Assembly (NCBI GenBank): GCA_038061075.1 | Contig: JBBUAA010000083.1 | Coordinates: forward strand, 1 to 35,235 | Source: Patescibacteria group bacterium | GTDB lineage: Bacteria; Patescibacteriota; Minisyncoccia; Phycocordibacterales; UBA2100 | Direction of reading: 5' to 3' | Length of the DNA stretch: 35,235 nucleotides | Part shown: positions 1 to 35,235 of the stretch, one piece after another | Numbering within the stretch: the stretch's first letter is position 1 | How the letters are laid out: each line of letters begins with the position of its first letter | Program-made: the position numbers and the translations under genes | The notes under the pieces: generated by a model | What the model was told of the DNA's origin: nothing | Databases searched by the model: none | The model's input: only the letters and a program-made list of their open reading frames with translations

Positions 1-200
1 GCATCAACCTCGTCAAACGCCACCGCAAACCTACCGCGCAGAACCGCAAGGGCCAGATCGTAGACAAACCGATGCCGATACACGCATCAAATGTAATGCT
101 TCTCGACCCGAAGACGGGGAAGCCCACGCGCATCAGGATTACGCGCGGCAAAGACGGGGCCCGCCAGCGCGTCGCGGTCAAGAGCGGCCAAGAAATATAG
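1..200 (+). CDS. rplX: 50S ribosomal protein L24, C-terminal part (5' end outside window)
   Basis: Frame 3 reads INLVKRHRKPTAQNRKGQIVDKPMPIHASNVMLLDPKTGKPTRIRITRGKDG..., stop TAG 198-200. Lies directly upstream of rplE as in spc operons. Confidence 0.9.
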   Translation, partial: INLVKRHRKPTAQNRKGQIVDKPMPIHASNVMLLDPKTGKPTRIRITRGKDGARQRVAVKSGQEI

Positions 201-214
201 AAAAAGTATCTTGT

Positions 215-760
215 ATGAAAACAGCTACAGCAACAGTGCGGGCGAACACATTCAACGCGCTCAAAGGCGACTTCGGCTACACAAGTCCGATGCAGGCGCC
301 GCGGGTGGTGAAGATCGTCGTCTCGTGCGGCGTAGGCTCGGTCAAGGACAAAAAGAGACTTGAGCTTATCGTGGACAGGCTCGCGCGCATCACGGGGCAG
401 GCTCCCGCGGTACGCGGCGCCAAGAAATCCATCGCCAACTTCAAGGTGCGCACGGGCGATATCGTCGGCTATCAGGTGACGCTCCGCGGAGCGCACGGGA
501 AATCGTTCCTCGACAAGCTCATCCACATCGTCCTGCCGCGTGTGAAGGACTTCCGCGGCATCAAGACTTCCGCCATCGACGAAATGGGCAACATCTCCAT
601 CGGCCTCAAAGAGCACACGGTCTTTCCGGAAACATCGGACGAGGATTCGAAGGACATCTTCGGCCTCGCGGTCACCATCGTGACGACCGCCAAGAACAAA
701 AAAGAAGCGGAAAGCTTCCTGCGCCACCTCGGCGTCCCGTTGCAGGAGGCAAATAAATAA
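215..760 (+). CDS. rplE: 50S ribosomal protein L5
   Basis: 181-aa ORF with typical L5 sequence (PRVVKIVVSCGVG..., KSIANFKVR, FRGI..., ISIGLKEHTVFPE). Synteny after rplX. Confidence 0.97.
   Translation: MKTATATVRANTFNALKGDFGYTSPMQAPRVVKIVVSCGVGSVKDKKRLELIVDRLARITGQAPAVRGAKKSIANFKVRTGDIVGYQVTLRGAHGKSFLDKLIHIVLPRVKDFRGIKTSAIDEMGNISIGLKEHTVFPETSDEDSKDIFGLAVTIVTTAKNKKEAESFLRHLGVPLQEANK
722..760 (+). repeat. Direct-repeat copy 1: authentic 3' end of rplE (RHLGVPLQEANK-stop)
   Basis: cgccacctcggcgtcccgttgcaggaggcaaataaataa. The first 18 nt are identical to 2449-2466, and the rest differs only at third codon positions plus one codon. Confidence 0.9.
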
Positions 761-767
761 CAAAAAT

Positions 768-795
768 AAAACGGGCACCTGACGGCGCCCGTTTT
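768..795. terminator. Bidirectional intrinsic terminator after rplE and after the minus-strand ORF ending at 813
   Basis: AAAACGGGC (768-776), 10-nt loop, GCCCGTTTT (787-795). The A-run and T-run allow termination in both directions. Confidence 0.6.
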
Positions 796-812
796 CAGCT
801 CACGACTTCTTT

Positions 813-1187
813 CTATGGGAGCAGAATGTCCGCGCCGACAGTGAGACCGAATGCTAGCTGACAGACTCCGCATACGGCCATCAGTCTCGTATTCAAATCC
901 CATTTAGACCACTCCCACTTCAGCCATTGTGCGGTAGTCCAAGTCGGAAAGTTGATCGAGATGCCCACTAGCCACGGAGTGATAGCGAACACCGCAAGGA
1001 ACATTGACACCCCGCCCATCTCGGTGAGTGGACTTTGTTCGGGTTGAAACGCAAATACACTTCGTAGGATTGCATGAAGGGCCATCAACCCCGTGCCACT
1101 TCCTGTCATCAGACAGGCCACGAGCATCGGAATTGTCCTGACGACCCTCCAGGTTCGCATTAGCAACTGCATGTTCATCTCCTTCAT
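813..1187 (-). CDS. Small hydrophobic protein with about three predicted TM helices, unknown family
   Basis: 124-aa ORF. Its start overlaps the stop of the upstream ORF by 4 nt (ATGA at 1184-1187). Hydrophobic stretches IPMLVACLMTGSGTGLMALHAIL, GGVSMFLAVFAITPWLVGISI and LMAVCGVCQLAFGLTVGADILL. Confidence 0.5.
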   Translation of the reverse strand: MKEMNMQLLMRTWRVVRTIPMLVACLMTGSGTGLMALHAILRSVFAFQPEQSPLTEMGGVSMFLAVFAITPWLVGISINFPTWTTAQWLKWEWSKWDLNTRLMAVCGVCQLAFGLTVGADILLP

Positions 1188-1555
1188 TTTGCCCCGATGA
1201 GGCCGCCGAGAACGGCATACAGCCTGCCGATGGTTTCTTTGTCACCGGAGAGCAGCATTTGTTTCGGGTCGATGTCTCCGTGGGTCTCCGCGACCCACTT
1301 CCTGATAGAGGCCCTTTCATTGCCGCATAGGATGCCGATCCAAAGACCGATGTCGACGATCCAATCGAGAATCTCGATGGAATCCGGATTGCCGGCGAGC
1401 CAGTCTCTCAGAGTAATCAGCGAATCGTCGTCGCGGATATCGGGGCGACCGAACACACGGCCCCGCTCTTCCAAACTCAGTCCAAGCACCTTAAGCACAT
1501 TCAGGGCGAGTTGAGCCCGAGTGTCGGCAACTTCTTCGTGACGTCCCGTGGTCAT
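1184..1555 (-). CDS. MbcA/ParS/Xre-type antitoxin-like protein (DUF2384-like C-terminus)
   Basis: 123 aa. HTH-like LGLSLEERGRVFG, then IRKWVAETHGDIDPKQMLLSGDKETIGRLYAVLGGLIG, which fits the W...P..LL......L..L..I..G pattern of the toxin-binding domain. Canonical SD AAGGAG lies 6 nt upstream of the ATG. Confidence 0.55.
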   Translation of the reverse strand: MTTGRHEEVADTRAQLALNVLKVLGLSLEERGRVFGRPDIRDDDSLITLRDWLAGNPDSIEILDWIVDIGLWIGILCGNERASIRKWVAETHGDIDPKQMLLSGDKETIGRLYAVLGGLIGAK

Positions 1556-1618
1556 TCGCAGCTCCTTTTACAAAGAACGAGAGGACCCAGCGACCGCTCG
1601 TTCGGGGGAGGGGTGCTA

Positions 1619-1654
1619 GTATCTTTCAGATACCTAGCTTTTTATTAGGTATCT
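1619..1654. promoter_or_regulatory. Candidate operator in the divergent promoter region (three GTATCT/AGATAC half-sites)
   Basis: GTATCT-ttc-AGATAC at 1619-1633, and AGATACCT-N11-AGGTATCT at 1628-1654. A TAAAAT -10-like box follows at 1657-1662. Confidence 0.4.
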
Positions 1655-1699
1655 GTTAAAATATCACTACTGGACACAGTTCGTCAAGGAAATCTATTT

Positions 1700-2446
1700 A
1701 TGGGCCTTTTTCCCAAAGATCAGCGTGAGAATCTAACCCTTGTCGAAAAGGTTGGTTCGGTGTTTTTGGGCACGCGCGATTTTAGAGTTCTCGCGGAGCG
1801 CGCAGTCAATCTTATGACCTCCGAACTTAAACAAGAAGGGGTTTTGAGTGCTTCGATTTTCCGTGTACACCCAGAGGAGCAGAAGTTGTATGCGTACGCA
1901 TTTTCCTCCGGCGCGTTTGATGCCGTCAACAAACTGTATCCCAAGAAGTTTTCTGAATTGAGTGTTTCTCTCGACGAACCTGCAAACCTTCTTGCAAAAA
2001 CGGTTCGAACGAAAGAGGAACAGGAGGGCGATCATCTGTATGAGTTCGCGCGGCCCGCACTTAGTGAGATGGTCTCGACAGCAGTTCAGCGTCTCGTAGG
2101 GGCAAAACACGGTATCGCATATCCTTTGCGCTTGAAGCAGGGTAAAGTTGCCGGCGTAATCCTGTTCAGTGTCGGCGAACAGGCGATCAATGAACGACAA
2201 AGAATCCTCTTGGAGACCTTTCGCTCACAACTCGAACTCGCGTTCGAGAATGTGATGGAATTCGAACGTGTAGTCGAACGCTACAAACGATTCGTTGTTT
2301 CTGATGACGAAAACAAACCGACGGCACATTTCATGCTCCGTATCACGCCAAAACAGAACACGCTGCTAGAACAAAAGGCCAAAGAGGCGAAGCTAGACAA
2401 GACATCCTACATACGTTCATGGATTGATTCGGGGGCGGGAAGATAA
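1700..2446 (+). CDS. GAF-like sensor domain fused to a C-terminal MobC-type ribbon-helix-helix
   Basis: 248 aa. GAF-like core (...GIAYPLRLKQGKVAGVILFSVGEQAINERQRILLETFRSQLELAFENV). C-terminus AHFMLRITPKQNTLLEQKAKEAKLDKTSYIRSWI resembles RHH/MobC modules. SD-like AAGGA lies 9 nt upstream. Confidence 0.55.
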   Translation: MGLFPKDQRENLTLVEKVGSVFLGTRDFRVLAERAVNLMTSELKQEGVLSASIFRVHPEEQKLYAYAFSSGAFDAVNKLYPKKFSELSVSLDEPANLLAKTVRTKEEQEGDHLYEFARPALSEMVSTAVQRLVGAKHGIAYPLRLKQGKVAGVILFSVGEQAINERQRILLETFRSQLELAFENVMEFERVVERYKRFVVSDDENKPTAHFMLRITPKQNTLLEQKAKEAKLDKTSYIRSWIDSGAGR

Positions 2447-2448
2447 TA

Positions 2449-2484
2449 CGCCACCTCGGCGTCCCGCTGCAAGAAGCGAAATAA
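2449..2484 (+). pseudogene. Orphan duplicate of the rplE 3' end (RHLGVPLQEAK-stop), att-like direct-repeat copy 2
   Basis: cgc cac ctc ggc gtc ccg ctg caa gaa gcg aaa taa. Compared with 722-760 it has 18 identical nt, four synonymous third-position changes and one codon missing. No upstream rplE body. Confidence 0.85.
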
Positions 2485-2491
2485 CAGAAGT

Positions 2492-3091
2492 TTATTCGAT
2501 GAGAGTCCCTTGGACTCTCTCGAACTCAAGCACCTCGGAGTTCCTGATTAGGATTGTTCTGCTCGTAGTGTAGGAAATGCCCTTGTTGGGGCCGGACTCA
2601 AACCCAAGGTAAACACAACTCACTCCACGCTCTTTGACTTCGCGGATTGCCGGTTGTAGGTCGGAGTCTGAACTGCCAAGGATAATTTCCTTCACCTTTT
2701 TATCGCAGGTGTTGGCGACCATGTCCACGGCCATCCGCACATCAACGCCTTTCTCCTTGAAAACCAGGACCTTCTTGCCGCCTGGTCCGACTTCAAGCTG
2801 TCCGCGAACTCGACCGGCTAAAATTACTTGGAAGCCCTGTCGTTCAAGATGTGTTTTTAGGAGCCGCTGCTCCTCGATGAGTTTCTTTGATTTTTCCTTG
2901 CTGTCGTCGTGCTCTTTGATGCGCGCAAAATAAAATGCTTGTCTGTTGATTTTCACACCTGCAAGTACCTTGTCCAATAGGCCCCTAAAATCATACTCAT
3001 GCCATATGGGTCGCGTTTTTCCGGAGGAAGTAAAAACATCCTTCACTTTGCCCTTGAAGTTCTCCCCATCGATGAGCAGGATGGTCTCCAT
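2492..3091 (-). CDS. NYN/LabA-like (DUF88) domain protein, putative RNase
   Basis: 199 aa. LLIDGENF..., KGVDVRMAVDM..., ILGSSDSDLQPAIREVKERG match NYN-domain acidic motifs. TAAAAT lies 8 nt upstream of the ATG. Confidence 0.7.
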   Translation of the reverse strand: METILLIDGENFKGKVKDVFTSSGKTRPIWHEYDFRGLLDKVLAGVKINRQAFYFARIKEHDDSKEKSKKLIEEQRLLKTHLERQGFQVILAGRVRGQLEVGPGGKKVLVFKEKGVDVRMAVDMVANTCDKKVKEIILGSSDSDLQPAIREVKERGVSCVYLGFESGPNKGISYTTSRTILIRNSEVLEFERVQGTLIE

Positions 3092-3120
3092 ATCAGGCTA
3101 TTTTAGCAGAAAACCAATTC

Positions 3121-3152
3121 AAAACCCCAGCGGGCCTTGCGGCTGGCTGGGG
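3121..3152 (-). terminator. Intrinsic terminator downstream of the DinJ-like gene
   Basis: Minus strand reads CCCCAGC-CAGCCGCAAGGCCC-GCTGGGG followed by TTTT. Confidence 0.5.
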
Positions 3153-3189
3153 CGTGTATATCCACACTCTACTCAGATACCATGAGGTG

Positions 3190-3372
3190 TCAATGAAGGA
3201 TTGGGGACGAGGGGCTGTTGGACTTTTTACCGAAACTGATTTCTCCTTGCGCGACTATATCTCGCAGTATTTGATTGAGAATCGCTGAAAATGGGATTCC
3301 CCATTTTTTTGCCAGTTTTTGCGCTGCTTCCTTTAGCTTCTTGTCGGTCTTGAACATGACAGTGGTCTTCAT
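3190..3372 (-). CDS. RelB/DinJ-like ribbon-helix-helix antitoxin-like protein
   Basis: 60 aa. VMFKTDKKLKEAAQKLAKKWGIPFSAILNQILRDIV resembles DinJ (V..RID..LK..A..VL..GL..S..I). Inverted repeat ATACCA-N12-TGGTAT (3373-3396) abuts the start. TATACT lies 7 nt upstream of the ATG. Confidence 0.6.
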   Translation of the reverse strand: MKTTVMFKTDKKLKEAAQKLAKKWGIPFSAILNQILRDIVAQGEISFGKKSNSPSSPILH

Positions 3373-3420
3373 ATACCAAAGTATATATTCTGGTATAACT
3401 CTGTCAAGCGCAACTTTAAT

Positions 3421-3443
3421 CTCCGGAGGTTAAACCTCCGGAG
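3421..3443. repeat. Palindromic element CTCCGGAGGT-TAA-ACCTCCGGAG (family copy a)
   Basis: Perfect 10-bp arms with a 3-nt loop. Related copies at 15050-15095 and 32016-32030. Confidence 0.85.
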
Positions 3444-3495
3444 ATCGAACAATAGTGAATTGCCACATTTTCAGGCGGCGGGTGGTGCTTAATCG

Positions 3496-3523
3496 TTGCT
3501 GGACACGGTCCGTAGGCTATAAT
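3496..3523 (+). promoter_or_regulatory. Sigma70-like promoter TTGCTG-16-TATAAT driving a leaderless ORF
   Basis: -10 TATAAT at 3518-3523 ends 7 nt before ATG 3531. Shares GGCTATAAT with the adk and ftsH promoters. Confidence 0.55.
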
Positions 3524-3530
3524 TCATCCG

Positions 3531-3824
3531 ATGAACCTACGTCAGATTTTGATATTTGAAGGCATAGTTGGTATTGGCCTTATTGCAATCATCACATATT
3601 TTGGCCTTCAGCCCCAAGACGATTCATGGGGCCCATATTGGATCATGGAGGATATAACGCTGTTCGTTCTTATGGCCGTCGTGATGTACGCAACTGTTTG
3701 GCTATCAAGACTACTTACATATGCCGGGAATCGAGGGGTATCATCGACTCAGAAACGACTAATCGGCTTTGTACTAGCCGCCGGTTTGCTTTTCGTAATG
3801 TATTACATTGTAGTAGGCTTATAA
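3531..3824 (+). CDS. Small membrane protein (about three TM helices), unknown family
   Basis: 97-aa ORF with three long hydrophobic segments, directly behind a near-consensus promoter. Confidence 0.55.
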   Translation: MNLRQILIFEGIVGIGLIAIITYFGLQPQDDSWGPYWIMEDITLFVLMAVVMYATVWLSRLLTYAGNRGVSSTQKRLIGFVLAAGLLFVMYYIVVGL

Positions 3825-3847
3825 CGGACGTTGTTATAACGGACGTT
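3819..3847 (+). repeat. Tandem direct repeat, 2 x TTATAACGGACGTT at 15-nt period
   Basis: Copies at 3819-3832 and 3834-3847. The second copy runs into the -35 of the next promoter. Confidence 0.85.
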
Positions 3848-3875
3848 TGACTTCCGCTTCCACTTCGCGTATATT
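3847..3875 (+). promoter_or_regulatory. Candidate promoter TTGACT-17-TATATT that could re-drive rpsN and the distal operon
   Basis: -35 at 3847-3852, 17-nt spacer, -10 at 3870-3875, about 155 nt upstream of rpsN. A weak hairpin with a T-run at about 3880-3905 complicates the reading. Confidence 0.35.
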
Positions 3876-4031
3876 TCTCAAGCCTCGTAGGGGGCTTTGT
3901 TTTTTGACCACAGGTTGGAAGAAGAACAGGGCCACGCGAAGAAGCTTCTGTAATCAGGCTGCGCAAGCGCCGGATGCAAGGGCTTCTAGCTTCCCCCTAT
4001 TTGGCATACCTTTCAAATCTGTCCAAGAAAT

Positions 4032-4217
4032 ATGGCCAAGAAATCAATGATAATAAAGGCGCTCCGCGTGCCGAAATTCTCTACCCGCACCGTGCGGCGC
4101 TGCTTCAAGTGCGGCCGCCCGCGCGGCTTTATGCGCGATTTCAACCTCTGCCGCATCTGCTTCCGCGAAGAAGCACTAGAAGGGAATATCCCTGGCATCA
4201 AAAAGTCCTCTTGGTAA
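4032..4217 (+). CDS. rpsN: 30S ribosomal protein S14, type Z (zinc-binding, 61 aa)
   Basis: [46 protein letters not shown]... with a CxxC...CxxC motif. Confidence 0.95.
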
Positions 4218-4258
4218 TTACTACGAACTATGCACTACAAACTACGAACTAATTTTTT

Positions 4259-4654
4259 ATGGTAGGCGACCCCGTCGGTGACTTCATAGTGCGCCTTGCA
4301 AATGCAACGGCCATCAAGAAGGCCTCGGTCTCCGTGCCGTTCTCCGCTTTCAAAATGGCCATCGCGGAGAAGCTCAAAGACGCGGGCTTTCTGAAATCCA
4401 TCGAGAAGAAGGGCAAGAAGGTCCGGAAGACCATGGACATCGCGCTCAAGTACGATGAGGCGGGACACTCCGCCATCGAGGGCGTGAAGCGCATCTCGAA
4501 GCCCGGTCGCCGCATGTACAGAAACGCCCGCGAGATCGTGCCGGTCCGCTACGGACGCGGCGCACTGCTCCTCTCGACGCCAAAGGGGGTGCTCACCGAC
4601 AAAGAGGCGCGCAAACAAAACATCGGCGGCGAAGCGCTCTTCGAGATCTGGTAA
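4259..4654 (+). CDS. rpsH: 30S ribosomal protein S8
   Basis: 131 aa. DPVGDFIVRLANA..., typical S8 C-terminus GGEALFEIW. Synteny. Confidence 0.95.
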   Translation: MVGDPVGDFIVRLANATAIKKASVSVPFSAFKMAIAEKLKDAGFLKSIEKKGKKVRKTMDIALKYDEAGHSAIEGVKRISKPGRRMYRNAREIVPVRYGRGALLLSTPKGVLTDKEARKQNIGGEALFEIW

Positions 4655-4691
4655 CTACAAACTACGTTCTACGTACTACGAACTAATATAT

Positions 4692-5258
4692 ATGTCACGA
4701 ATAGGAAAACTCGCTATCACCATTCCCTCCGGCACCGAAGTCGGCGTGCAATCGGGTGAGATCGTCGTGAAAGGAAAGGGCGGCACCCTGAAGCGCATAC
4801 TGCATCCTGCGGTCTCTGTCACCGTCGAAGGCGGAAAAGTCTCGGTCGTGCCCGCACAGACGACCCGCTTGGCCCGCGCGCTGTGGGGGACATACGCCGC
4901 GCACGTCCGCAATATGATCGCGGGCGTGAATCAGCCGTTCACAAAGAGACTGCAGGTCGAAGGTATCGGATTTCGCGCCGAACTTGCCCCGCCAGCGGCG
5001 GGGCGAGCGGGCCAGCAACTGAAGTTGCAGGTCGGATTCTCACACCCTGTCATGATTGATATTCCCGCGGGTATCACCGCGACGGTGGAGAAGAACATTA
5101 TTTCCATCTCCGGTCCCGACAAAGAGGTCGTGGGGGGATTTGCCGCGGGCGTTCGCGCCATCAAGAAGCCGGAGCCGTACAAGGGCAAGGGCATCCGGTA
5201 TGAAGGCGAAGTCGTGCGGCAAAAGCAGGGTAAGAAAGCCGCGACGGCTGCCGCGTAG
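4692..5258 (+). CDS. rplF: 50S ribosomal protein L6
   Basis: 188 aa. MSRIGKLAITIPSGTEV..., EPYKGKGIRYEGE. Synteny. Confidence 0.95.
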   Translation: MSRIGKLAITIPSGTEVGVQSGEIVVKGKGGTLKRILHPAVSVTVEGGKVSVVPAQTTRLARALWGTYAAHVRNMIAGVNQPFTKRLQVEGIGFRAELAPPAAGRAGQQLKLQVGFSHPVMIDIPAGITATVEKNIISISGPDKEVVGGFAAGVRAIKKPEPYKGKGIRYEGEVVRQKQGKKAATAAA

Positions 5259-5320
5259 GTCAGTTGACAGCGAACAGGCAACAGTAAACAGACAACAGTA
5301 AACGAAGGAGACAAAATTTT

Positions 5321-5665
5321 ATGACAATGACAAAAACACAGCAAAGAACCCGTCGCCACAAGCGCGTCCGCGCGAAAGTAATCGGCAGCGAAGCGCGTCC
5401 GCGCCTCTCGGTCTACAAATCGAATACGCGCCTTCTCGCGCAGATCATTGATGACAAGAGCGGCACAACGCTCGCGTCGGTCACATCCCTCACTGAAAAG
5501 GGAAAGACCCCCCGCGAACGCGCGGAGGCGGCCGCGGCGACGCTGGCAAAGCTTGCACGCGAGAAAGGTGTCACGGCTGTCGTCTTTGATCGCGGCGGGT
5601 TCCAGTACCTCGGTACTATCAAAGCGTTTGCCGAGGCGGCGCGTGCAGCCGGTCTGAAATTCTAA
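5321..5665 (+). CDS. rplR: 50S ribosomal protein L18
   Basis: 114 aa. RRHKRVRAKV...RLSVYKSNTRLLAQIIDD..., VVFDRGGFQYLGTIKAFAEAAR. SD AAGGAG at 5303-5308. Confidence 0.95.
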   Translation: MTMTKTQQRTRRHKRVRAKVIGSEARPRLSVYKSNTRLLAQIIDDKSGTTLASVTSLTEKGKTPRERAEAAAATLAKLAREKGVTAVVFDRGGFQYLGTIKAFAEAARAAGLKF

Positions 5666-5684
5666 ATACCACATAAATATATAT

Positions 5685-6362
5685 ATGGCAGATAACACAG
5701 AAGAAGAAAAAGTGGCCGTGGACCCCGTTGCAGCCCCCGTCGTCGACGAGGCGACTACGGCGGTCGTGGCAGAAAAGGCTCCGGAGAAAAAGTCGTTCCA
5801 ACGGGGTGCTTCACGCGACCCGCGCCGCGGCGGTGGACGCCCGGGGGGACGACCGAGGGGGAACCGCCCACGTGACGAACGCAGAAGTGAATTCGCGCAA
5901 AAATTGATCGGCATCCGGCGTGTGGCGCGTGTCATGGCCGGCGGCCGCCGTTTCAACTTCAGCGCCGCCCTCGTACTTGGTGATAAGAAAGGCCGCGTCG
6001 GAGTGGGCTTGGGCAAAGCCGCCGACACCGCGCTCGCCATCGAGAAGGCCACGCGCGCCGCGAAACGTGCCATGATCACCATCAATCTCTCCAAGAACCG
6101 GAGCATCCTACACAATGTCGCGGCGAAGTTCTGCGCGTCGCGCGTCGAGATCAGGCCAAGCCCCGGCAGAGGATTGGTCGCGGGCTCGTCGGTCAGGACC
6201 GTTCTCGAACTCGGCGGCGTGTCCGACGTGACCGCAAAGCTCCTCTCGCGCAGCAAGAATCCGGTCAACAACGCGCGCGCGGCTATCAAGGCCCTGCAAC
6301 AGGCCACACACACCCGTCCGAAAAATGCAGCCCCTTCGGGAGCGGGAACCGCAAACCTGTAA
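5685..6362 (+). CDS. rpsE: 30S ribosomal protein S5 with an acidic then Arg/Gly-rich N-terminal extension
   Basis: 225 aa. Core [35 protein letters not shown]... is typical S5. Confidence 0.95.
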   Translation: [225 protein letters not shown]

Positions 6363-6378
6363 AACTATAAACTAGTAT

Positions 6379-6822
6379 ATGGCAAGCCTACACGAACTGA
6401 AGCGGGAGACACTGAAAGCGAAGCGGCGTGTCGGACGCGGGGGCAAACGCGGCAAGACATCGGGCCGCGGCACCAAGGGACAGAACGCGCGCGCCGGCCG
6501 CAAGAAGCGTCCCGAGTGGCGCGACATCATCAAGAAACTTCCGAAGCGCAGGGGCTTCGGGAAGAACCGCGGGCGCACGGTCGACAACACACGACAGGAC
6601 GCGGTCACGATATCACTCGGGCGCCTTGAGACGGCGTTCGATGCCGGTGCGGAAGTCTCGACGAAGACGCTTTTGGAGCGCGGCGTCATCCGCGCCCGCT
6701 CCGGCGCACCCGTCAAGATCGTCGGAGAGGGTTCGCTGACGAAGAAACTCACGGTGAAGGGTATTCCCGTCTCTGCGACCGCCCGCGCCGCCATCGAAAA
6801 GGCCGGCGGTGTCATTTCATAA
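6379..6822 (+). CDS. rplO: 50S ribosomal protein L15
   Basis: 147 aa. LHELKRE...RVGRGGKRGKTSGRGTKGQNARAG. Starts 16 nt after rpsE, so no L30 gene lies between them. Confidence 0.95.
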   Translation: MASLHELKRETLKAKRRVGRGGKRGKTSGRGTKGQNARAGRKKRPEWRDIIKKLPKRRGFGKNRGRTVDNTRQDAVTISLGRLETAFDAGAEVSTKTLLERGVIRARSGAPVKIVGEGSLTKKLTVKGIPVSATARAAIEKAGGVIS

Positions 6823-6826
6823 TCGT

Positions 6827-8101
6827 ATGTGGGAAGCATTTTGGCGCAAAACGAAACTCATCCTTGCGGATGAGACGCTGCGCGCGCGCGTCCTGTTCGT
6901 CCTCGGCGCGTTCATTGTATTCCGCCTGCTCGCGGCGATACCTATACCCGGCATTGATGCGCTCGCCCTTGAGAATTATCTCGCCAACAACCAATTCCTC
7001 GGTCTCCTCAACATATTTTCCGGCGGCGGGTTTTCCAACCTCTCCATCATGATGATCGGAGTCTCGCCCTACATCACCGCCTCCATCATCATGCAGCTCT
7101 CGACGGTCCTCTCGCCGAAATTGAAGGCGCTCTATCAGGAGGAAGGGGATGCGGGCCGCATGCGCTTCATGCAGTACTCGCGGTACCTCACGGTGCCGCT
7201 CGCGTTCATTCAGGCGACCGGATTTTTGGTACTGCTCCAGCAGAACGGCGTCGTGCCGGCTCTTGGTATGCTCCAGATGGTGACCAACATAACCGTTATC
7301 GCGGCGGGGGCGCTCCTCATCATGTGGATTGGTGAGCTCATCTCCGAATTCGGCGTGGGCAACGGCATCTCGCTCCTCATCTTTGCCGGCATCGTCGCAT
7401 CTATTCCTTCCTCGATAGCGCAGTTCGTATTCTCGTTCGACCTCTCGCAACTTCCCGCATATGTCGGATTCGCCGCCGCCGCCGTCCTCGTCACCGCGGG
7501 AGTCGTCTTCATTACCGAAGCGGAGCGCCCCATTCCCGTCACCTATGCACGCCGCGTCCGCGGCATGAAGGTCATGGGGGGCGTCTCTACCTACCTGCCT
7601 CTGCGCGTCAATCAGGCGGGGGTGATGCCCATCATCTTCGCGCTCTCGATACTGCTCTTTCCGCAGATGATCGCGACCTTCCTCGCCAAGAGTTCTATCC
7701 CGTTCATCGCGACCGCCGCAGGCGCCGTTGTCGGCGCGCTCGGCAATCAGTGGATATACGGCGGGCTCTACTTCGGATTCGTATTCATCTTTACGTACTT
7801 CTATACGGCCATCACCTTCGAACCGAATCAGGTCGCGAAGAACCTGCAGAAGAACGGCGCGTTCATCCCCGGTGTCCGCCCCGGTACTACCACCGCCGAA
7901 TACCTCGGCAACATCATCACGCGCATCACGCTGGTAGGCGCCCTCTTCTTGGGCTCGCTTGCGCTCCTCCCGCTTATCCTGCAGGGGCTGACCGGCATCA
8001 CCGCACTCACGATAGGCGGCACCGCGCTCCTCATCGTCGTCTCCGTCGTCTTGGATGTCGTGAAGAAAGTTGACGCGCAGACCTCTATCAGAGAGTATTA
8101 G
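6827..8101 (+). CDS. secY: Preprotein translocase subunit SecY
   Basis: Multi-TM ORF with SecY motifs (IPIPGID, NIFSGGGFSNLSI, GISLLIFAGIV). ATG 6827 preferred over GTG 6809, which overlaps rplO. Start uncertain. Confidence 0.93.
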   Translation: MWEAFWRKTKLILADETLRARVLFVLGAFIVFRLLAAIPIPGIDALALENYLANNQFLGLLNIFSGGGFSNLSIMMIGVSPYITASIIMQLSTVLSPKLKALYQEEGDAGRMRFMQYSRYLTVPLAFIQATGFLVLLQQNGVVPALGMLQMVTNITVIAAGALLIMWIGELISEFGVGNGISLLIFAGIVASIPSSIAQFVFSFDLSQLPAYVGFAAAAVLVTAGVVFITEAERPIPVTYARRVRGMKVMGGVSTYLPLRVNQAGVMPIIFALSILLFPQMIATFLAKSSIPFIATAAGAVVGALGNQWIYGGLYFGFVFIFTYFYTAITFEPNQVAKNLQKNGAFIPGVRPGTTTAEYLGNIITRITLVGALFLGSLALLPLILQGLTGITALTIGGTALLIVVSVVLDVVKKVDAQTSIREY

Positions 8102-10662: not shown

Positions 10663-11944
10663 CGTACTCGTTATCGGCGGCGGCGGACGCGAGCATGCGC
10701 TCGCGTGGAAATTGAAACAATCGCCACGGATCGGAAAGCTCTACATCGCGCCGGGGAACGGCGGGACGCTCGCTCTTGGAGAAAACGTGCCTATCGGCGT
10801 CATGGAATTCAAGAAACTCGCCGACTTTGCTGAAGAAAAAAATATTCACCTTACGGTAGTGGGGCCGGATGACCCGCTGGCGGGAGGAATCGTCGATTTT
10901 TTCCGCGCGCGGGGATTGCGCATTTTCGGCCCCGAGTATAAAGCGGCCCAACTCGAGAGTTCGAAGTCATTTTCCAAGCAGTTGATGCGGGACGTCGGAG
11001 TGCCGACCGCCGCATTCAAGATCTTTTCATCGTATACCGCGGCATCCGCGTATGTACAGCAACATAGCCTCCCCGTCGTCATAAAGGCAAGCGGGCTCGC
11101 ACTCGGGAAAGGCGTCTATATCTGCAACACAGTAGCGGAAGCGGACGCGGTATTGCGGGCAATCATCATCGACCGGGTCCACCAAGGTGCCGGCGACGAG
11201 GTCATCGTCGAAGAGTACCTGAACGGCCCCGAAGTATCAGTCCACGCGCTTACGGACGGGTTCGCGTCGCTCTTGTTCCCGCCGTCGCAGGACCACAAGC
11301 GCGCATTGGACGGGGATCAGGGTGAGAATACCGGCGGCATGGGAGCGATAGCGCCCCTCCCATGGGTAGGGCCCCAAATGCTCTCCGATATCGAGAAGTA
11401 CGTCGTCCGCCCCGTACTCGATGCTCTGCTCGCACGCGGCATACAATTCAGCGGCCTTTTGTATCCGGGGTTGAAGATAACACCCGACGGCATCAAGGTC
11501 TTGGAGTTCAACGCCCGCTTTGGCGATCCCGAGTGTCAGGTGTACATGCGGCTCCTCAAGAGCGATATCCTTGACGCGCTGGAAGCATGTGCCGACGGGC
11601 GGCTCATCGGGAGCAACATAACCCTTGAGTGGAATAAAGGGTTTGCAGTGAACATCGTCATCGCCTCAGGCGGCTACCCGGGTGAATATAAAAAGGGTTT
11701 GCCCATCACCGGTATCGAAGAAGCGGAAAAGGTGGACGGCGTTGTCGTTTTCCACGCAGGCACAATGATTGATTTACGAAATCAATCATTGGTCACGTCG
11801 GGCGGCCGCGTCCTCGGAGTCTCTGCAGTCGGCGACACGCTGAAAGACGCACTAGACCGCGCGTACGAGGCCGTAGGCAAGATTCATTTCGAAGGCATGC
11901 ACTTCCGCCGCGACATCGGCGCGAAAGCGTTGGCACAAAAGTGA
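10652..11944 (+). CDS. purD: Phosphoribosylamine-glycine ligase
   Basis: MATDVLVIGGGGREHALAWKL..., ATP-grasp core, EFNARFGDPE. Start set at ATG 10652. The 10565 extension overlaps the LOG gene. Confidence 0.92.
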   Translation: MATDVLVIGGGGREHALAWKLKQSPRIGKLYIAPGNGGTLALGENVPIGVMEFKKLADFAEEKNIHLTVVGPDDPLAGGIVDFFRARGLRIFGPEYKAAQLESSKSFSKQLMRDVGVPTAAFKIFSSYTAASAYVQQHSLPVVIKASGLALGKGVYICNTVAEADAVLRAIIIDRVHQGAGDEVIVEEYLNGPEVSVHALTDGFASLLFPPSQDHKRALDGDQGENTGGMGAIAPLPWVGPQMLSDIEKYVVRPVLDALLARGIQFSGLLYPGLKITPDGIKVLEFNARFGDPECQVYMRLLKSDILDALEACADGRLIGSNITLEWNKGFAVNIVIASGGYPGEYKKGLPITGIEEAEKVDGVVVFHAGTMIDLRNQSLVTSGGRVLGVSAVGDTLKDALDRAYEAVGKIHFEGMHFRRDIGAKALAQK

Positions 11945-11956
11945 TATACTTTCGAG

Positions 11957-14797
11957 ATGCCTCCGACATTGGAGAAGCCGCATATTGCGGCACCCGCAAA
12001 GTTCAAATCTCCCGAGGAGGAACTTTCCTATTTGCGGCAGCGCGTCGCCGAAAAAGAGGGGGAGCTTGAGGCGGCGCACAACCGTTTTGAAAGCGACCGC
12101 ATCGCCAAGCGTGAGGTCGCTGCGTACGCCGAGGTGCCGGCGGCGACCGTACTTCACGAATCCTATGTTATGCCCGAACACGAGTCGGTGCGGCATAAGC
12201 TCCGGCTTGAGCCGGAGACGCACGACGTCCAGATGGATGAACTTCTGAAGATTGTGGTGGAGCGGGGGATAAAAAACGCGCTCGCGGTATGCGCCAAATT
12301 GAAGAACCCCCACCTTGAGGATGATTTTCACCGCATGCTCACGCGATACGTCGCCGAGGGTTTGCCGGATGCCGGCGGCGCGCCGCCGGAGCGTATCCGC
12401 CGCGCGCTCGACCTCGTACTTTTCACGGTTGATCCGCAGGCGCACGGCGAGCGCGAAAAGCAGGACAACAGCCAGCATCGTCTGGAGCAGGTACTTTCGT
12501 CGTCCGAACAGCTGTATGCGGGACTCCTCTCGTTCATCGGGAAACACGAAGGATTCTCACTGGAGATAGCGGTACCCGAAGGCACGGAAGCGGCGATCCT
12601 CTATCTTGCCGTACCGCGTCAGAAGAAAGACCTTGCCGAACGCCTCATCTCCTCGGTATTCCCCAATGCCCGTATTAATGAGGAGCGCGGCGATTACAAT
12701 ATTTTCAATTATGAAGGCGCGCATGCGGCCGCCTACGCGACATTGGCCGATACCCCCGCGTACCCCCTGAAGACGCCGGATATGTTCGAGCACGATCCCA
12801 TGAACGTGCTTTTGGCCGCATTCGCGAAAATTGCGAAGCACGGCGAGGGCGCGGCGATGCAGATAATGGTGGGGACCGAGGGCGACCGCTACAATCATCA
12901 CTACAAAAAAATGTTGCGGCGTCTCGAGAAGGGCAAGACCCTGCATAAGGCCCTCGCCGTCCCCGAGAGCGCGGTCGGGGAGATGCTCTACGACATGTCG
13001 CATATGATGCTCAAGGACGAAAAGCAAATGCAGGCCGAGAAAGACCGTGCATTCCGCCGGCAGGCCGACAAGGTCGCGGCGGAGGAGATAGAACGCAAGA
13101 TTAAGAGCAAGATCGGGCCGACCCTCATCCGCCTCGTCGCATCAGCGCCGGCGAAGGCGCGCGCCGAAGATATTCTCGGCAATCTTATCGCCCCCTTCAG
13201 CCAATACGACGACCCGAAGGGCAACCGTCTGGTATTCAAAAAGATCTCGGGCTGGAGCCTCAACAGCTTCCTGCGCGACTTCACCTACCGTATATTCGAT
13301 TCGTCCTACGCGGTCCCGCTCTCGCTCGCGGAGGTCACGGCCATCTTTCACTTCACCGCAGAGCGGGTCCACACCTCGCGTGAGCTGAAGCGCTCGTTCG
13401 CCAAGCAATCTCCCGCACCGGTCGAGATGCCGTCCGACGGCATCACACTCGGTGTGAACCGCTACGGTGCGGAGGAGCGGCCCGTCAAATTCGGCGTCGC
13501 CGACCGCCTCCGCCACTGCTATGTGATAGGGCAGACGGGTACCGGAAAGACGGGGCTGCTCAAGAATATGATCATTCAGGATATCAAGAACGGCGACGGT
13601 GTCGCCTTCGTCGATCCGCACGGCAACGACATCGAGGACATCCTTGCCGCCATCCCGCCGGAGCGCGCGAAAGACGTTATCTACTTCGATCCGGCGCATA
13701 CAGACCGCCCCATGGGTCTCAACATGCTCGAATACGACCGCACGAAGCCGGAGATGAAGACATTCGTCGTTGACGAAGTGTACGGCATCTTTCGCAAGCT
13801 TTACGCCGATGTGCCGGAGGCGTTCGGCCCGATGTTCGAACAGTACTACCGCAACGCGGTCCAGCTCGTCGTCGAGGATCCGGACTCAGGTTCGACGTTC
13901 GTCGAGATACCCCGCGTGTTCGCCGACACCGCATTCCGGAATCTGAAGCTCTCGCGGTGCAAGAATCCCATCATCGTGCAATTCTGGCGCAAGATCGCCG
14001 AACAGGCGCAGGGCGATCCCTCGCTCGAGAATGTCGCGCCCTATATCACGAGCAAATTCGACGTCTTTCTCACCAACGACATCATGCGGCCCATCGTCAG
14101 TCAGGAGAAATCCGCGTTCGACTTCCGCAGCATCATGGACGACAAGAAAATATTTCTCGCGAATCTCTCGAAGGGCCGCTTGGGCGACCGCAACACGAGT
14201 CTGCTCGGACTCATCCTCGTGTCCAAATTCCTGCAAGCCGCGTTCTCGCGCGTCGACACGCGCGGCGGCAGCCTTCCCGTCTTCTATCTCTACATCGACG
14301 AGTTCCAGAACTTCGCGACGCCGTCTATCGGCACCATCCTCTCCGAGGCCCGAAAATACAAGCTCTCGCTCGTCATCGCGCACCAATTCATCGCGCAGCT
14401 CGACGAGAAAATACGCGATGCGGTCGTGGGCAACGTCGGCACGAAGGCATCTTTCCGCGTGGGTACGACCGACGCGGAATTCCTCGCGAAACAATTCGAG
14501 CCCGTCTTCGGCCAGCAAGACCTCGAGAATCTTCCCAACCGCCATGCGGTGTGCGCGCTCCTCGTCAACGGCGTCCCCGCGCGGCCATTCTCGCTCCAGA
14601 CGGAAAACCTGCCTGCCTTCGACTTCAGCACGGTCCCCGCATTGAAGGAGCTTTCATACCGGACGTTCGGGCGCGACAGGGAAGAAGTGGAATCCGAGAT
14701 GCGCGCGAAATTCGAAGCAAGTTACGGCAAGCCCGCAGCCCCCGACCTTGGCGCCGCACTCGGCGGCCTGCCCGACCCCGCGTCGCTGTACCAGTAG
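11957..14797 (+). CDS. Large soluble TraD/VirD4/TraG-like (FtsK-HerA superfamily) ATPase with an unknown ~500-aa N-terminal region
   Basis: 946 aa. Walker A GQTGTGKTG, Walker B FYLYIDEFQNF, and SEARKYKLSLVIAHQFIAQL typical of the TraG-D C-terminal domain. No obvious N-terminal TM helices. Confidence 0.75.
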   Translation: MPPTLEKPHIAAPAKFKSPEEELSYLRQRVAEKEGELEAAHNRFESDRIAKREVAAYAEVPAATVLHESYVMPEHESVRHKLRLEPETHDVQMDELLKIVVERGIKNALAVCAKLKNPHLEDDFHRMLTRYVAEGLPDAGGAPPERIRRALDLVLFTVDPQAHGEREKQDNSQHRLEQVLSSSEQLYAGLLSFIGKHEGFSLEIAVPEGTEAAILYLAVPRQKKDLAERLISSVFPNARINEERGDYNIFNYEGAHAAAYATLADTPAYPLKTPDMFEHDPMNVLLAAFAKIAKHGEGAAMQIMVGTEGDRYNHHYKKMLRRLEKGKTLHKALAVPESAVGEMLYDMSHMMLKDEKQMQAEKDRAFRRQADKVAAEEIERKIKSKIGPTLIRLVASAPAKARAEDILGNLIAPFSQYDDPKGNRLVFKKISGWSLNSFLRDFTYRIFDSSYAVPLSLAEVTAIFHFTAERVHTSRELKRSFAKQSPAPVEMPSDGITLGVNRYGAEERPVKFGVADRLRHCYVIGQTGTGKTGLLKNMIIQDIKNGDGVAFVDPHGNDIEDILAAIPPERAKDVIYFDPAHTDRPMGLNMLEYDRTKPEMKTFVVDEVYGIFRKLYADVPEAFGPMFEQYYRNAVQLVVEDPDSGSTFVEIPRVFADTAFRNLKLSRCKNPIIVQFWRKIAEQAQGDPSLENVAPYITSKFDVFLTNDIMRPIVSQEKSAFDFRSIMDDKKIFLANLSKGRLGDRNTSLLGLILVSKFLQAAFSRVDTRGGSLPVFYLYIDEFQNFATPSIGTILSEARKYKLSLVIAHQFIAQLDEKIRDAVVGNVGTKASFRVGTTDAEFLAKQFEPVFGQQDLENLPNRHAVCALLVNGVPARPFSLQTENLPAFDFSTVPALKELSYRTFGRDREEVESEMRAKFEASYGKPAAPDLGAALGGLPDPASLYQ

Positions 14798-15951: not shown

Positions 15952-16560
15952 ATGAAAGCCCATCCGAAGAAAGAACGCACGCTCGTCATCTTGAAGCCCG
16001 ACGCCATCCAGCGCGCGCTCATGGGTGAGATAATCGCCCGCTATGAGCGGCTCGGCTTGAAGCTTGCCGGACTCAAGATGGTGGTCCCGACGCCGGAGCA
16101 GATAGAGGGGCACTACACGCTCGACCCCAATTGGCGGCGCGTGACCGGCGAGAAGACCATCAAGAGTTACAAGGACAGGGGACTGACGCCTCCCTCGGAA
16201 GACCCGCTCGCGATTACCGCGGTCATTCTCAAGAATCTCAAGAAGTACATGACCGCCGGCCCCGTCATCGCGATGGTCTGGGAGGGAGCGCACGCGGTGG
16301 AGCTCGTCCGCAAGGTGACCGGCGGCACGGAGCCGCGCTCGTCCCCCATCGGCACCATCCGCGGTGATTTCGTCGTGGATTCCTACGTCATGTCCGATCA
16401 GGATGACAGGGCGGTACGCAATCTCATCCATGCATCCGGCTCCGTTCCCGAAGCCGACATGGAGATACCGCATTGGTTCAAAAAAGACGAGATCATCGAC
16501 TACAAGGTGACGCGCGAGGACATTCTCTACGCCAAAGAACTTGAGGGCATCCTTCCGTAA
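15952..16560 (+). CDS. ndk: Nucleoside diphosphate kinase (long form with an internal insertion)
   Basis: ERTLVILKPDAIQR..., GPVIAMVWEG, GTIRGDF, NLIHASGS. TACAGT lies 7 nt upstream of the ATG. Confidence 0.9.
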   Translation: MKAHPKKERTLVILKPDAIQRALMGEIIARYERLGLKLAGLKMVVPTPEQIEGHYTLDPNWRRVTGEKTIKSYKDRGLTPPSEDPLAITAVILKNLKKYMTAGPVIAMVWEGAHAVELVRKVTGGTEPRSSPIGTIRGDFVVDSYVMSDQDDRAVRNLIHASGSVPEADMEIPHWFKKDEIIDYKVTREDILYAKELEGILP

Positions 16561-28045: not shown

Positions 28046-28448
28046 GGTGGAGGTGTCGGGTATCGGACCCGAGTCCAGAGAAAGATGATATGCACGTGTC
28101 TACGAAGCGTAGGTCATCTTGGTGAGACCGGGGTCTCATTTCAGATACGCATGTGTGAGATGAACAGAATCATGCGCAGCCTAGTCCCGTTCTCTTAGAT
28201 GCGGAGGGGACACTCGTGCATCAGTGCTTGAATTTTTTTACGCCCGGTCAACTCATATCAAGCATGGAGCTGACGGACGGCGCTTAGGCTACGAGAGCGT
28301 AAGCGGGCTGCAAGTCCTTCATCTGAATAGGTGAAAGAATTGCCCGTGCTACTTTGTTCGCACTTGGAATTTGAGCGGGTTTGGAGAGTCGCTCACTCTC
28401 GCAACGCGCATGCATAGACCGATTTCCCTGTCGAAGCCAGTCACCCCC
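28046..28448 (-). ncRNA. ssrA: tmRNA (transfer-messenger RNA)
   Basis: Minus strand starts GGGGGTGACTGGCTTCGACAGGGA. It ends ...TGGACTCGGGTCCGATACCCGACACCTCCACC, giving a T-arm TCGGG/CCCGA and acceptor GGGGGTG/CACCTCC with a G3:U pair. The internal tag frame ends ...QPAYALVA-TAA (stop at 28284-28286). Adjacent to smpB. Confidence 0.9.
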
Positions 28449-35103: not shown

Positions 35104-35175
35104 CCGCCGATAGCTCAATGGTAGAGCAGTCGCCTTATACGCGATTGGTTGGGGGTTCGAGTCCCTCTCGGCGGA
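35104..35175 (+). tRNA. tRNA with anticodon UAU (reads AUA, isoleucine)
   Basis: Cloverleaf folded by hand. Acceptor CCGCCGA/TCGGCGG, D-arm GCTC-AATGGTA-GAGC. Anticodon arm GTCGC-CTTATAC-GCGAT with anticodon TAT at 35136-35138. 5-nt variable loop, T-arm GGGGG-TTCGAGT-CCCTC, discriminator A. CCA is not encoded. Confidence 0.8.
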
Positions 35176-35235
35176 CAGACATGAAGAAGGGTGGGGATTC
35201 GCGTGTTGCGTCATTTTTCACGCGTGCCACAATGC

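Follow-up and report, generated by a model that had tools for sequence, protein, structure and literature searches.

Plasticity hotspots between core genes are a familiar feature of bacterial chromosomes; toxin-antitoxin and defence-type genes are frequent in them, and their turnover probably works through homology in the flanks. Ribosomal-protein genes can also serve as targets, as for the streptococcal integrative and conjugative elements (ICEs) that target the 3′ ends of rplL, rpsI and rpmG. Homology-facilitated illegitimate recombination, in turn, is known from naturally transformable bacteria. Here, we analyze a locus that can be compared with all three: the spc ribosomal-protein operon at the start of a 35,235-nucleotide (nt) stretch of DNA from a Patescibacteria group bacterium (assembly GCA_038061075.1, contig JBBUAA010000083.1, positions 1 to 35,235 of the forward strand; from here on, the window). 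In this operon, an island of non-ribosomal genes separates rplE from rpsN, and the cut between the two genes turns out to be shared by a whole clade of relatives.

The integration hotspots, or regions of genomic plasticity, of E. coli likewise combine variable, species-specific content with a fixed site and conserved flanks (PMC2617782). Our locus differs from them in that its flanks are cistrons that elsewhere are adjacent in one ribosomal-protein operon, that no tRNA, integrase or transposase was found at it, and that the site is occupied in every member of the deep clade that we examined. In Gammaproteobacteria and Bacilli, small insertions into the ribosomal supercluster were followed by loss of linkage; they lie mostly between operons (rpoBC-str, str-S10), with nrdHEF inside rpoBC (PMC8046335). 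As in those cases, we appear to see an ancestral insert of a few genes, relaxed synteny and sometimes full separation (here in the loci numbered L005 and L012). Unlike in those cases, the cut is inside spc, it goes with a promoter and a leader that are newly fixed, and in place of one fixed insert it has hypervariable content. In E. coli, spc itself is autoregulated by S8 through an mRNA structure at rplE, a control of narrow distribution (PMC3616713). We know of no earlier account, from our searches of the literature, of an spc operon that is split throughout a clade and has a hypervariable gap at the cut.

The first 8 kb of the window hold the end of rplX, rplE, six non-ribosomal open reading frames (ORFs), and then rpsN through secY. 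The flanking genes and their signals are these:

72–200, end of rplX, upstream of rplE
215–760, plus strand, rplE (uL5; Pfam Ribosomal_L5 and L5_C), last gene of the upstream transcription unit
722–760, plus strand, live rplE 3′ end, copy 1 of a repeat, encoding RHLGVPLQEANK and the stop
768–795, both strands, GC-rich hairpin between the convergent rplE and a 124-aa ORF, a predicted terminator that is strong on the minus strand and weaker on the plus strand
2449–2484, plus strand, rplE 3′ end remnant, copy 2 of the repeat, 36 nt encoding RHLGVPLQEAK in frame with a stop
3819–3847, 15-bp tandem duplication, TTATAACGGACGTT twice, abutting the −35 box; homology to relatives restarts there
3847–3875, plus strand, predicted rpsN promoter TTGACT-17-TATATT (consensus scan, 10 of 12 positions), conserved in the clade
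3880–3905, plus strand, conserved promoter-proximal hairpin of the type GCCUCG-NNNN-GGGGGC, then a U-tract
3906–4031, plus strand, conserved rpsN 5′ leader with an irregular long hairpin at about 3942–3987, capped by a GNRA-type loop
4032–4217, plus strand, rpsN (zinc-type uS14, 61 aa; Pfam Ribosomal_S14), heading the unit rpsN-rpsH-rplF-rplR-rpsE-rplO-secY

Thus, rplE and rpsN lie 3271 bp apart with six ORFs on both strands between them, as an earlier note on this DNA, made without database searches, had described. The GC content across the island is 0.43–0.50, down from about 0.59, and the GC content at third codon positions (GC3) is 0.43–0.66 in the island vs. 0.64–0.82 in the flanking genes. 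The window belongs to a 37-kb contig from Hainich groundwater, and the closest public genomes are labelled Candidatus Kaiserbacteria or Paceibacterota. The whole arrangement is found colinear, at 98.8–100% identity, in eight independent assemblies (one long-read), which rules out both an assembly artefact and a rare variant; in the population, the island is fixed. An identical rplE protein is present on 4 further contigs, and every contig with the exact GAF or NYN protein (both described below) carries the full island. The contig L002 (619 bp, coverage 1, from another well) has the same rplE and leaves the window sequence about 10 nt past the stop; its tail (579–619) matches none of the other sequences fetched, and L002 could stem from a strain with a variant gap, or it could be a chimera.

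In order to place the split in time, we compared 80 loci around rplE relatives from species-representative genomes, taking gene distances from tblastn; clade assignment of the relatives is by record titles and rplE identity, and gene calls in them are rough. In the 14 genomes of the Kaiserbacteria/Adlerbacteria clade, the distance from rplE to rpsN is 178–5951 bp, or rpsN lies beyond 10 kb (L005, L012). In the other 66 loci, which include two other Patescibacteria, it is −8 to 184 bp, mostly around 20. Look-ups of exact proteins and homologues added eight clade genomes with gaps of 1.0–3.6 kb, so that the gap is expanded in 22 of 22 clade genomes (178–5951 bp in 20, beyond 10 kb in the other 2). 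Along the cluster from rplB to secY, the clade has just two expanded junctions, rplE|rpsN in every genome and rplB|rpsS in most, this contig included; the other junctions measure at most about 250 bp. Homology between the window and its relatives ends near the rplE stop and restarts at about 3845. Because all sampled relatives are cut at this point and the gene set differs per species, the comparison tells us that the split of spc between rplE and rpsN is old, and that only the contents of the gap are recent. The earlier note had suggested at least two insertion events inside a core operon; the break itself is not a recent insertion into an intact operon. Its view of the site as a hotspot is borne out, since the content differs in every relative. 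The comparison of the junction across relatives that it proposed finds the same split everywhere and the same island nowhere.

The contents of the gap were compared across the clade by BLAST and Pfam, and they differ between relatives. We observe an S-adenosylmethionine (SAM) methyltransferase in six genomes, a PaaX/Cas2-like protein with GNAT in L004 and L008, MazF in L013, Fic with HATPase in L014, Cas1 in L016, a low-molecular-weight phosphatase in L015, YafQ with its antitoxin in the L085 group, lipid-modifying genes in L005, PIF1 helicase with a helix-turn-helix protein in L012, and haem-oxygenase-like, radical-SAM and EamA genes beside GAF homologues in L113, L114 and L116. None of the gaps scanned has an integrase, transposase or recombinase domain.

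Two further observations concern junctions of the same clusters. The rplB–rpsS junction measures 24–4672 bp among clade relatives, and in L001:453–1890 (same contig, upstream of the window start) it forms a second occupied junction, which holds a DUF5674 protein, a 90-aa ORF and a minus-strand membrane ORF. In the ribosomal cluster of L011, nearly every intergenic spacer is widened to 93–243 nt.

On the rpsN side of the gap, the signals are the same throughout the clade. TTGAC-17-TATATT is invariant in an alignment of 14 rpsN upstream regions, in which the hairpin starts about 6 nt after the promoter and a leader of about 130 nt is next; in a second alignment, promoter and hairpin are kept in at least 18 of 20 sequences. 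The match at 3847–3875 was proposed before as a new promoter. The consensus match is real; conserved in 14/14 and at least 18/20 aligned sequences of clade relatives, the promoter is an old, fixed feature. In the leader, 91% of the alignment cells of the long hairpin are paired and compensatory changes occur at 9 of the 19 pairs. The covariation score was reached by 0 of 500 column shuffles, slid controls pair only 30–62%, and the result was repeated on 15 Kaiserbacteria-type sequences. Rfam reports no match for positions 1–7000 of the window at a permissive threshold (E up to 1). The more distant L116, L124 and L016 keep the promoter and the U-run hairpin, and the long leader is absent from them. 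The rpsN ATG of L124 comes 5 nt after the U-run, which indicates that the hairpin is part of the mRNA 5′ end and not simply a stop signal. In L011, the homologue of the leader is found about 460 nt upstream of rpsN.

The same layout of promoter, hairpin and U-run precedes rpsS wherever the rplB|rpsS junction is expanded. It is possible, if somewhat doubtful, that after the spc split the clade evolved a new control device for ribosomal-protein sub-operons. Such a device would consist of a promoter with a terminator-like hairpin and U-tract no more than about 10 nt behind it (before rpsN and rpsS), and of an undescribed structured rpsN leader that S8 or S14 may bind for feedback. As in the S8 control of E. 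coli, a conserved structured RNA heads a unit encoding S14, S8, L6, L18, S5 and L15. Unlike in E. coli, the RNA stands before rpsN and not before rplE, it is unrelated in sequence and structure as far as Rfam tells, and the protein binding is putative. The conserved rpsN leader and the promoter-hairpin module appear to be the most novel parts of the locus.

We add some observations on these transcription units. The layout before rpsS starts with TTGAC-17-TA.A.ATT, and no more than about 10 nt further on comes a GC hairpin with a T-run; it is seen at L001:1826–1886, with equivalents in L004, L005, L006, L008, L013, L015, L113 and L114, and species with a compact rplB–rpsS junction (L010, L014) are without it. 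The duplication TTATAACGGACGTT is an exact 14-nt sequence repeated at 15-nt spacing, and it overlaps the stop of a 97-aa ORF. A repeated intergenic motif, ACTACGAACTA..ACTACGAACTAAT, lies at 4220–4253 and 4654–4687, ahead of rpsH and rplF; a scan for translation signals found no Shine-Dalgarno (SD)-like motif upstream of either gene. Related repeats rich in AAC/CTA precede ribosomal genes in L009 and L011. The rpsE ORF (5685–6362) has 225 aa, of which some 70 N-terminal residues are of low complexity and rich in Ala, Pro, Arg and Gly; against the typical length of S5, this stretch would be an extension.

On the rplE side, the hairpin at 768–795 had been described as a bidirectional terminator. 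The hairpin is real, and it would mainly terminate the convergent 124-aa gene: on the minus strand, it folds with −21.8 kcal/mol and has the tail UUUUAUUUUU, and on the rplE strand, where it is weaker, with −16.8 kcal/mol, an A.C mismatch and UUUU only. A terminator directly follows rplE in at least 8 relatives, and in more by eye (hairpin and T-run in most).

The 3′ end of rplE occurs twice, and the two copies bracket 761–2448, as noted before. Positions 722–753 and 2449–2480 agree at 28 of 32 positions, with an 18-nt exact core that includes CGCCACCTCGGCGTCCCG; by our own estimate, the chance of an exact 18-mer repeat in 5 kb is about 2e-4. All 4 differences between the copies are synonymous in the rplE frame. 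With the window, three genomes have an rplE 3′ end after the GAF stop, the others being L122 and L130. The L122 remnant is at least 78 nt long (26 in-frame codons), and its last 35 nt are identical to the window remnant (35/35), the GAF genes of the two being 66% identical as DNA and 62% as protein. The L130 remnant is about 30 nt long and differs at 9 of 30 nt from the live rplE end of L130, in 7 synonymous codons and 1 non-synonymous one. Because the copies differ almost only synonymously, both would have evolved inside working rplE genes, and thus in different lineages of origin. Moreover, remnants of such unequal length (36 nt, at least 78 nt and about 30 nt) speak against a fixed attachment site, and that they recur after GAF genes in different lengths suggests recombination with an anchor in rplE and not the action of an integrase. 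At the tig locus of L117, a possible rplE-like remnant behind the GAF gene was too weak, and we have not used it.

Between the two flanks, the island holds the following, where RHH stands for ribbon-helix-helix:

813–1187, minus strand, 124-aa ORF with three hydrophobic segments, a membrane protein as judged from sequence
1184–1555, minus strand, 123-aa ORF with a predicted NatR/MbcA (Xre-type) antitoxin fold, SD-like GGAG upstream
1619–1660, plus strand, putative GAF-RHH operator/promoter: inverted repeat GTATC-N5-GATAC, half-site GGTATCTG, −10 TAAAAT
1700–2446, plus strand, 248-aa putative one-component regulator: GAF sensor domain, long helix, putative C-terminal RHH
2492–3091, minus strand, NYN/LabA-like nuclease-domain gene, 199 aa (Pfam NYN, 1.5e-14)
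3096–3198, minus strand, conserved non-coding segment with a terminator-like hairpin (3139–3120) and a promoter-like site (3193–3166)
3190–3372, minus strand, 60-aa ORF, a putative truncated RelB/DinJ-type RHH antitoxin, no cognate toxin
3380–3407, minus strand, promoter-like site of the RHH gene, TTGACA-16-TATACT, the −10 ending 7 nt before the ATG
3531–3824, plus strand, 97-aa hydrophobic ORF with the lowest GC3 (0.43), TATAAT 7 nt before the ATG

We agree with the earlier note that the make-up of the island is heterogeneous and that a boundary falls at the rplE-end repeat (2448/2449). Among the island ORFs, SD-like motifs are found ahead of the 123-aa and 248-aa ORFs only. The NYN, RHH and 97-aa ORFs have a −10-like hexamer 7–8 nt before the ATG, and several resident genes, among them adk and the LOG-family and VirD4-like genes, likewise have one close before theirs. 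The proposed contrast between SD-led and leaderless-style translation therefore holds at the motif level. In addition, the right layer is syntenic with relatives, in that the RHH stump corresponds to the antitoxin that L085, L086, L011 and L122 have at this site.

Taken together, we consider it probable that the locus combines an ancestral, clade-wide split of spc, a permissive pocket of turnover, and a layered mosaic produced by recombination anchored in rplE. By the comparison, spc was cut in the common ancestor of the Kaiserbacteria/Adlerbacteria clade into two units, of which the first would end at rplE and the second start with its own promoter and the proximal hairpin and U-tract, to which Kaiserbacteria proper add the structured rpsN leader. 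Because both flanks carry their own signals, DNA between them would leave ribosomal-protein expression undisturbed. The gap would thus be a permissive pocket in which genes are gained, lost and swapped, and the highly conserved flanking genes would offer homology for recombination with DNA of related lineages. In the window, an older layer of resident type, at about 2449–3845, would comprise the remnant of the original rplE 3′ end, the NYN gene, the YafQ/DinJ stump and the small membrane ORF, with leaderless-style promoters. A younger layer (761–2448), with the terminator, a toxin-antitoxin-like pair (NatR fold and a three-transmembrane (3-TM) protein) and a self-regulated GAF-RHH regulator, would have come in along with an rplE 3′ end of another lineage, which replaced the native one. 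One crossover would have been anchored in the rplE body, and the other join would be non-homologous, inside the rplE end of the recipient. Such homology-facilitated illegitimate recombination, with an rplE anchor and a non-homologous join, explains a foreign end plus a native leftover of variable length; here, it is read solely from scars in the sequence. Alternatively, a circular fragment carrying an rplE end could have entered by a Campbell-type single crossover. Neither route needs an integrase.

Several points weigh against this reading of a layered mosaic in a permissive pocket. The GC3 pattern does not match a left part that came as one foreign block: the two leftmost ORFs are host-like (0.63 and 0.66), the GAF gene is low (0.52), and the boundary in composition, taken from GC3, is near 1600, not at 2448. 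Independent transcription of the rpsN unit is inferred from conserved motifs alone; the hairpin and U-tract right after the rpsN promoter resemble a terminator; and the weak hairpin on the plus strand behind rplE makes some read-through possible. Exact look-ups of the rplE, rpsN, GAF and NYN proteins turned up no convincing empty-site variant. Finally, the 35/35 identity between the remnants of the window and L122 exceeds what one would expect of a dead scar and could mark a functional recombination site; this conserved 35-nt rplE-end element may be a working site for cassette exchange free of any integrase.

This last point also bears on what we consider the best surviving alternative, an unlikely one, in which 761–2448 is an integrative cassette with site specificity; its attachment site would mimic the 3′ end of rplE, the 18-nt core would be the crossover, and a recombinase would be supplied in trans. 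Direct repeats lie at the exact ends of the segment, the ORF is restored, and beyond the identical 18-nt core the arms have diverged, much as in ribosomal-gene ICEs, whose insert is bracketed by a 3′-end direct repeat and leaves the gene intact. The strongest case for a trans-acting recombinase is that the window and L122 share an unchanged remnant while its neighbours have diverged. The rplE-like ends after GAF genes in three genomes fit as well, the GAF modules in tandem and at other loci suggest mobility, and the gap of L016 has a separate direct repeat of its own. In that gap (L016:10530–16258, Adlerbacteria, with Cas1), a perfect 38-bp repeat at 11942–11979 and 16221–16258 brackets 4.3 kb just upstream of the rpsN promoter. 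But the insert, unlike the ICEs, has no integrase, relaxase or conjugation gene, is only 1.7 kb long, and has a repeat of variable length. None of the six island ORFs has a recombinase domain (Pfam, NCBIfam, PADLOC), and the two that were modelled have a GAF fold and an antitoxin fold; no recombinase is found in the scanned gaps of relatives either. The boundary is not fixed, as the three remnant lengths attest, and the GAF gene of L113, L116 and L124 directly adjoins the rpsN promoter, no rplE-like end coming between them.

Less probable still is a local tandem duplication from the rplE 3′ end to just past the GAF gene, with the repeat as its junction and a second copy whose content then diverged, was deleted or was replaced. 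If it began 36 nt ahead of the rplE stop, such a duplication would indeed put an rplE-end fragment directly after the GAF stop, as seen, and tandem GAF copies are known in L117, L120 and L118. However, there is no second GAF copy or remnant downstream of 2484, and a dead duplicate is expected to gather random changes and not only synonymous ones. The copies in L130, which differ so much as nucleotides and encode nearly the same peptide, fit orthologues of two lineages and not paralogues within one genome.

We next consider the GAF gene itself. Pfam matches GAF_2 and a NikA-like family (5.6e-4; the C-terminal RHH), both below cutoff. An AlphaFold2 (AF2) model has a mean predicted local distance difference test (pLDDT) score of 83.6, and its top 50 matches in the PDB nearly all contain GAF domains, with E down to 7e-8. 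The family has 35 homologues of about 250 aa, and in at least 8 other genomes they are found in the rplE–rpsN gap on the plus strand. Upstream of the homologues, a conserved inverted repeat overlaps the −35 and a half-site precedes the −10. Most genomes have the repeat as GGTGTC-N5-GACACC; the window and the closest homologue have GTATC-N5-GATAC. The repeat co-varies with the GAF-RHH protein subfamily. In the window, it has a single copy, ahead of the GAF gene, and is absent at the rpsN promoter. The 248-aa protein is probably a self-regulating one-component regulator. Regulation of rpsN by GAF-RHH was rejected, as the putative operator is not at the rpsN promoter. The idea of a GAF family bound to the rplE–rpsN locus was also dropped: in L117, homologues stand in tandem ahead of tig-clpP, and in L123 the family occurs close to a proton pyrophosphatase, which makes the module relocatable.

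With this, we find it very improbable that the gap genes are a functional unit tied to ribosome supply, in which GAF-RHH or NYN would control the rpsN unit. The shared strand and the recurrence in the gap would suit such a unit, with three of the genes directly upstream of the rpsN promoter, and NYN is a conserved domain of RNA-nuclease type. Against it stand the restriction of the operator motif to the GAF gene, the 14 clade genomes without GAF in the gap, the GAF genes beside tig-clpP and elsewhere, and the unrelated contexts of NYN homologues in two other genomes. As to an assembly or binning chimera, for which the metagenome source and the GC drop inside the island might speak, it is refuted by the eight independent assemblies, which come from different samples and sequencing methods and agree at 98.8–100%, and by the gaps at the same place in relatives.

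To the left of the GAF gene, the 123-aa ORF has an AF2 model with pLDDT 92. The best Foldseek matches of the model are chains of the NatRT complex (8qnq, 8qnl; about 120 residues), with TM 0.70–0.73, a root-mean-square deviation of 2.7–3.0 Å, probability 1.0 and E about 3e-3. An exhaustive search of 1.84 billion representatives finds five remote homologues, and a k-mer-filtered search found none. Through an ATGA overlap, the ORF is coupled translationally to the downstream 124-aa ORF, which has no match in Pfam, NCBIfam or PADLOC; a weak homologue of the latter (38%) adjoins GAF genes in L117 and L120. We read the two as a candidate toxin-antitoxin-like pair. It shares the NatR fold and the coupling to a downstream gene with the Xre/MbcA/NatR-RES modules. 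The partner differs: no RES-domain toxin is present, and the coupled ORF at 813–1187, without a Pfam match, is a hydrophobic 3-TM protein.

To the right, the NYN protein has 1786 homologues. The best 120 listed are mostly 71–77% identical and include Zambryski-, Nomura-, Lipton- and Pacebacteria, and in two genomes looked up the contexts are unrelated. Being conserved lineage-wide in Parcubacteria, the gene is not accessory, and we regard its product as a candidate core RNA-processing enzyme of Parcubacteria. We observe that this conservation (71–77%) is as high as that of ribosomal proteins, and the genomic position is not conserved. To call all six ORFs accessory, as had been done, is then too broad, given NYN and given the GAF-RHH homologues in the same gap of at least 8 other genomes. 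An anti-phage defence island was also considered and rejected: PADLOC matched only the NYN ORF of the island, and weakly (HEC-09 6e-9, NYN 4.5e-7), and NYN is conserved lineage-wide.

The 60-aa ORF next to it was earlier called DinJ-like. A RelB/DinJ-type RHH similarity is there, below cutoff (TIGR02384, E 1.2e-7, 31.9 bits vs. a cutoff of 45.65; Pfam RelB 1.1e-3), in what is a truncated antitoxin that has lost its toxin. The ORF is 66–72% identical to ORFs in the antitoxin position in L011 and L122, and its homology to the antitoxin that L085, L011 and L122 have here in a YafQ module is limited to the N-terminal part and the promoter. No cognate toxin lies beside it; homology ends after the N-terminal part of the antitoxin, and the NYN gene is next, where L085 has YafQ. 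By these alignments, the ORF is the stump of a decayed module of the YafQ/DinJ type, with a putative RHH domain like that of RelB/DinJ-YafQ modules kept and the C-terminal part and the toxin lost. NYN and the RHH ORF as a toxin-antitoxin pair were rejected, the one being lineage-wide and the other the stump of a YafQ-type module.

Overlapping the end of this ORF, the segment 3096–3198 is 93% identical to L086 4521–4624 vs. about 80% for the adjoining coding DNA. The L086 counterpart sits on the other side of the RHH gene. The fold of the segment has z = −2.3, and it may be a small RNA or a portable control region. The 97-aa ORF has no significant family match in Pfam or NCBIfam.

Elsewhere in the window, we observe a tRNA-Ile with the unusual anticodon UAU at 35104–35176; most bacteria decode AUA with a lysidine-modified CAU tRNA. 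A tmRNA gene lies at 28046–28448 on the minus strand, with the tag peptide ANKVARAILSPIQMKDLQPAYALVA. A few kb downstream of the ribosomal cluster, after purD, positions 11957–14797 encode a 946-aa ORF like a VirD4/TraG-type coupling protein (DUF8128, weak TrwB and TraG-D_C matches).

The S10-spc-alpha order is among the most conserved gene orders of bacteria, and it serves as an anchor for phylogeny and binning in uncultured lineages. Here, a whole clade of the candidate phyla radiation (CPR) has spc stably cut at one junction, in many members joined by a second (rplB|rpsS), and the cut has turned into a site of turnover for toxin-antitoxin, regulatory and other genes. This comes with a warning, as contig breaks and strain variation are to be expected inside the marker-gene clusters of such genomes. 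Importantly, the clade supplies a candidate leader RNA and a candidate promoter-hairpin module, and it would be a natural test case of how the balance of ribosomal proteins is kept without co-transcription.

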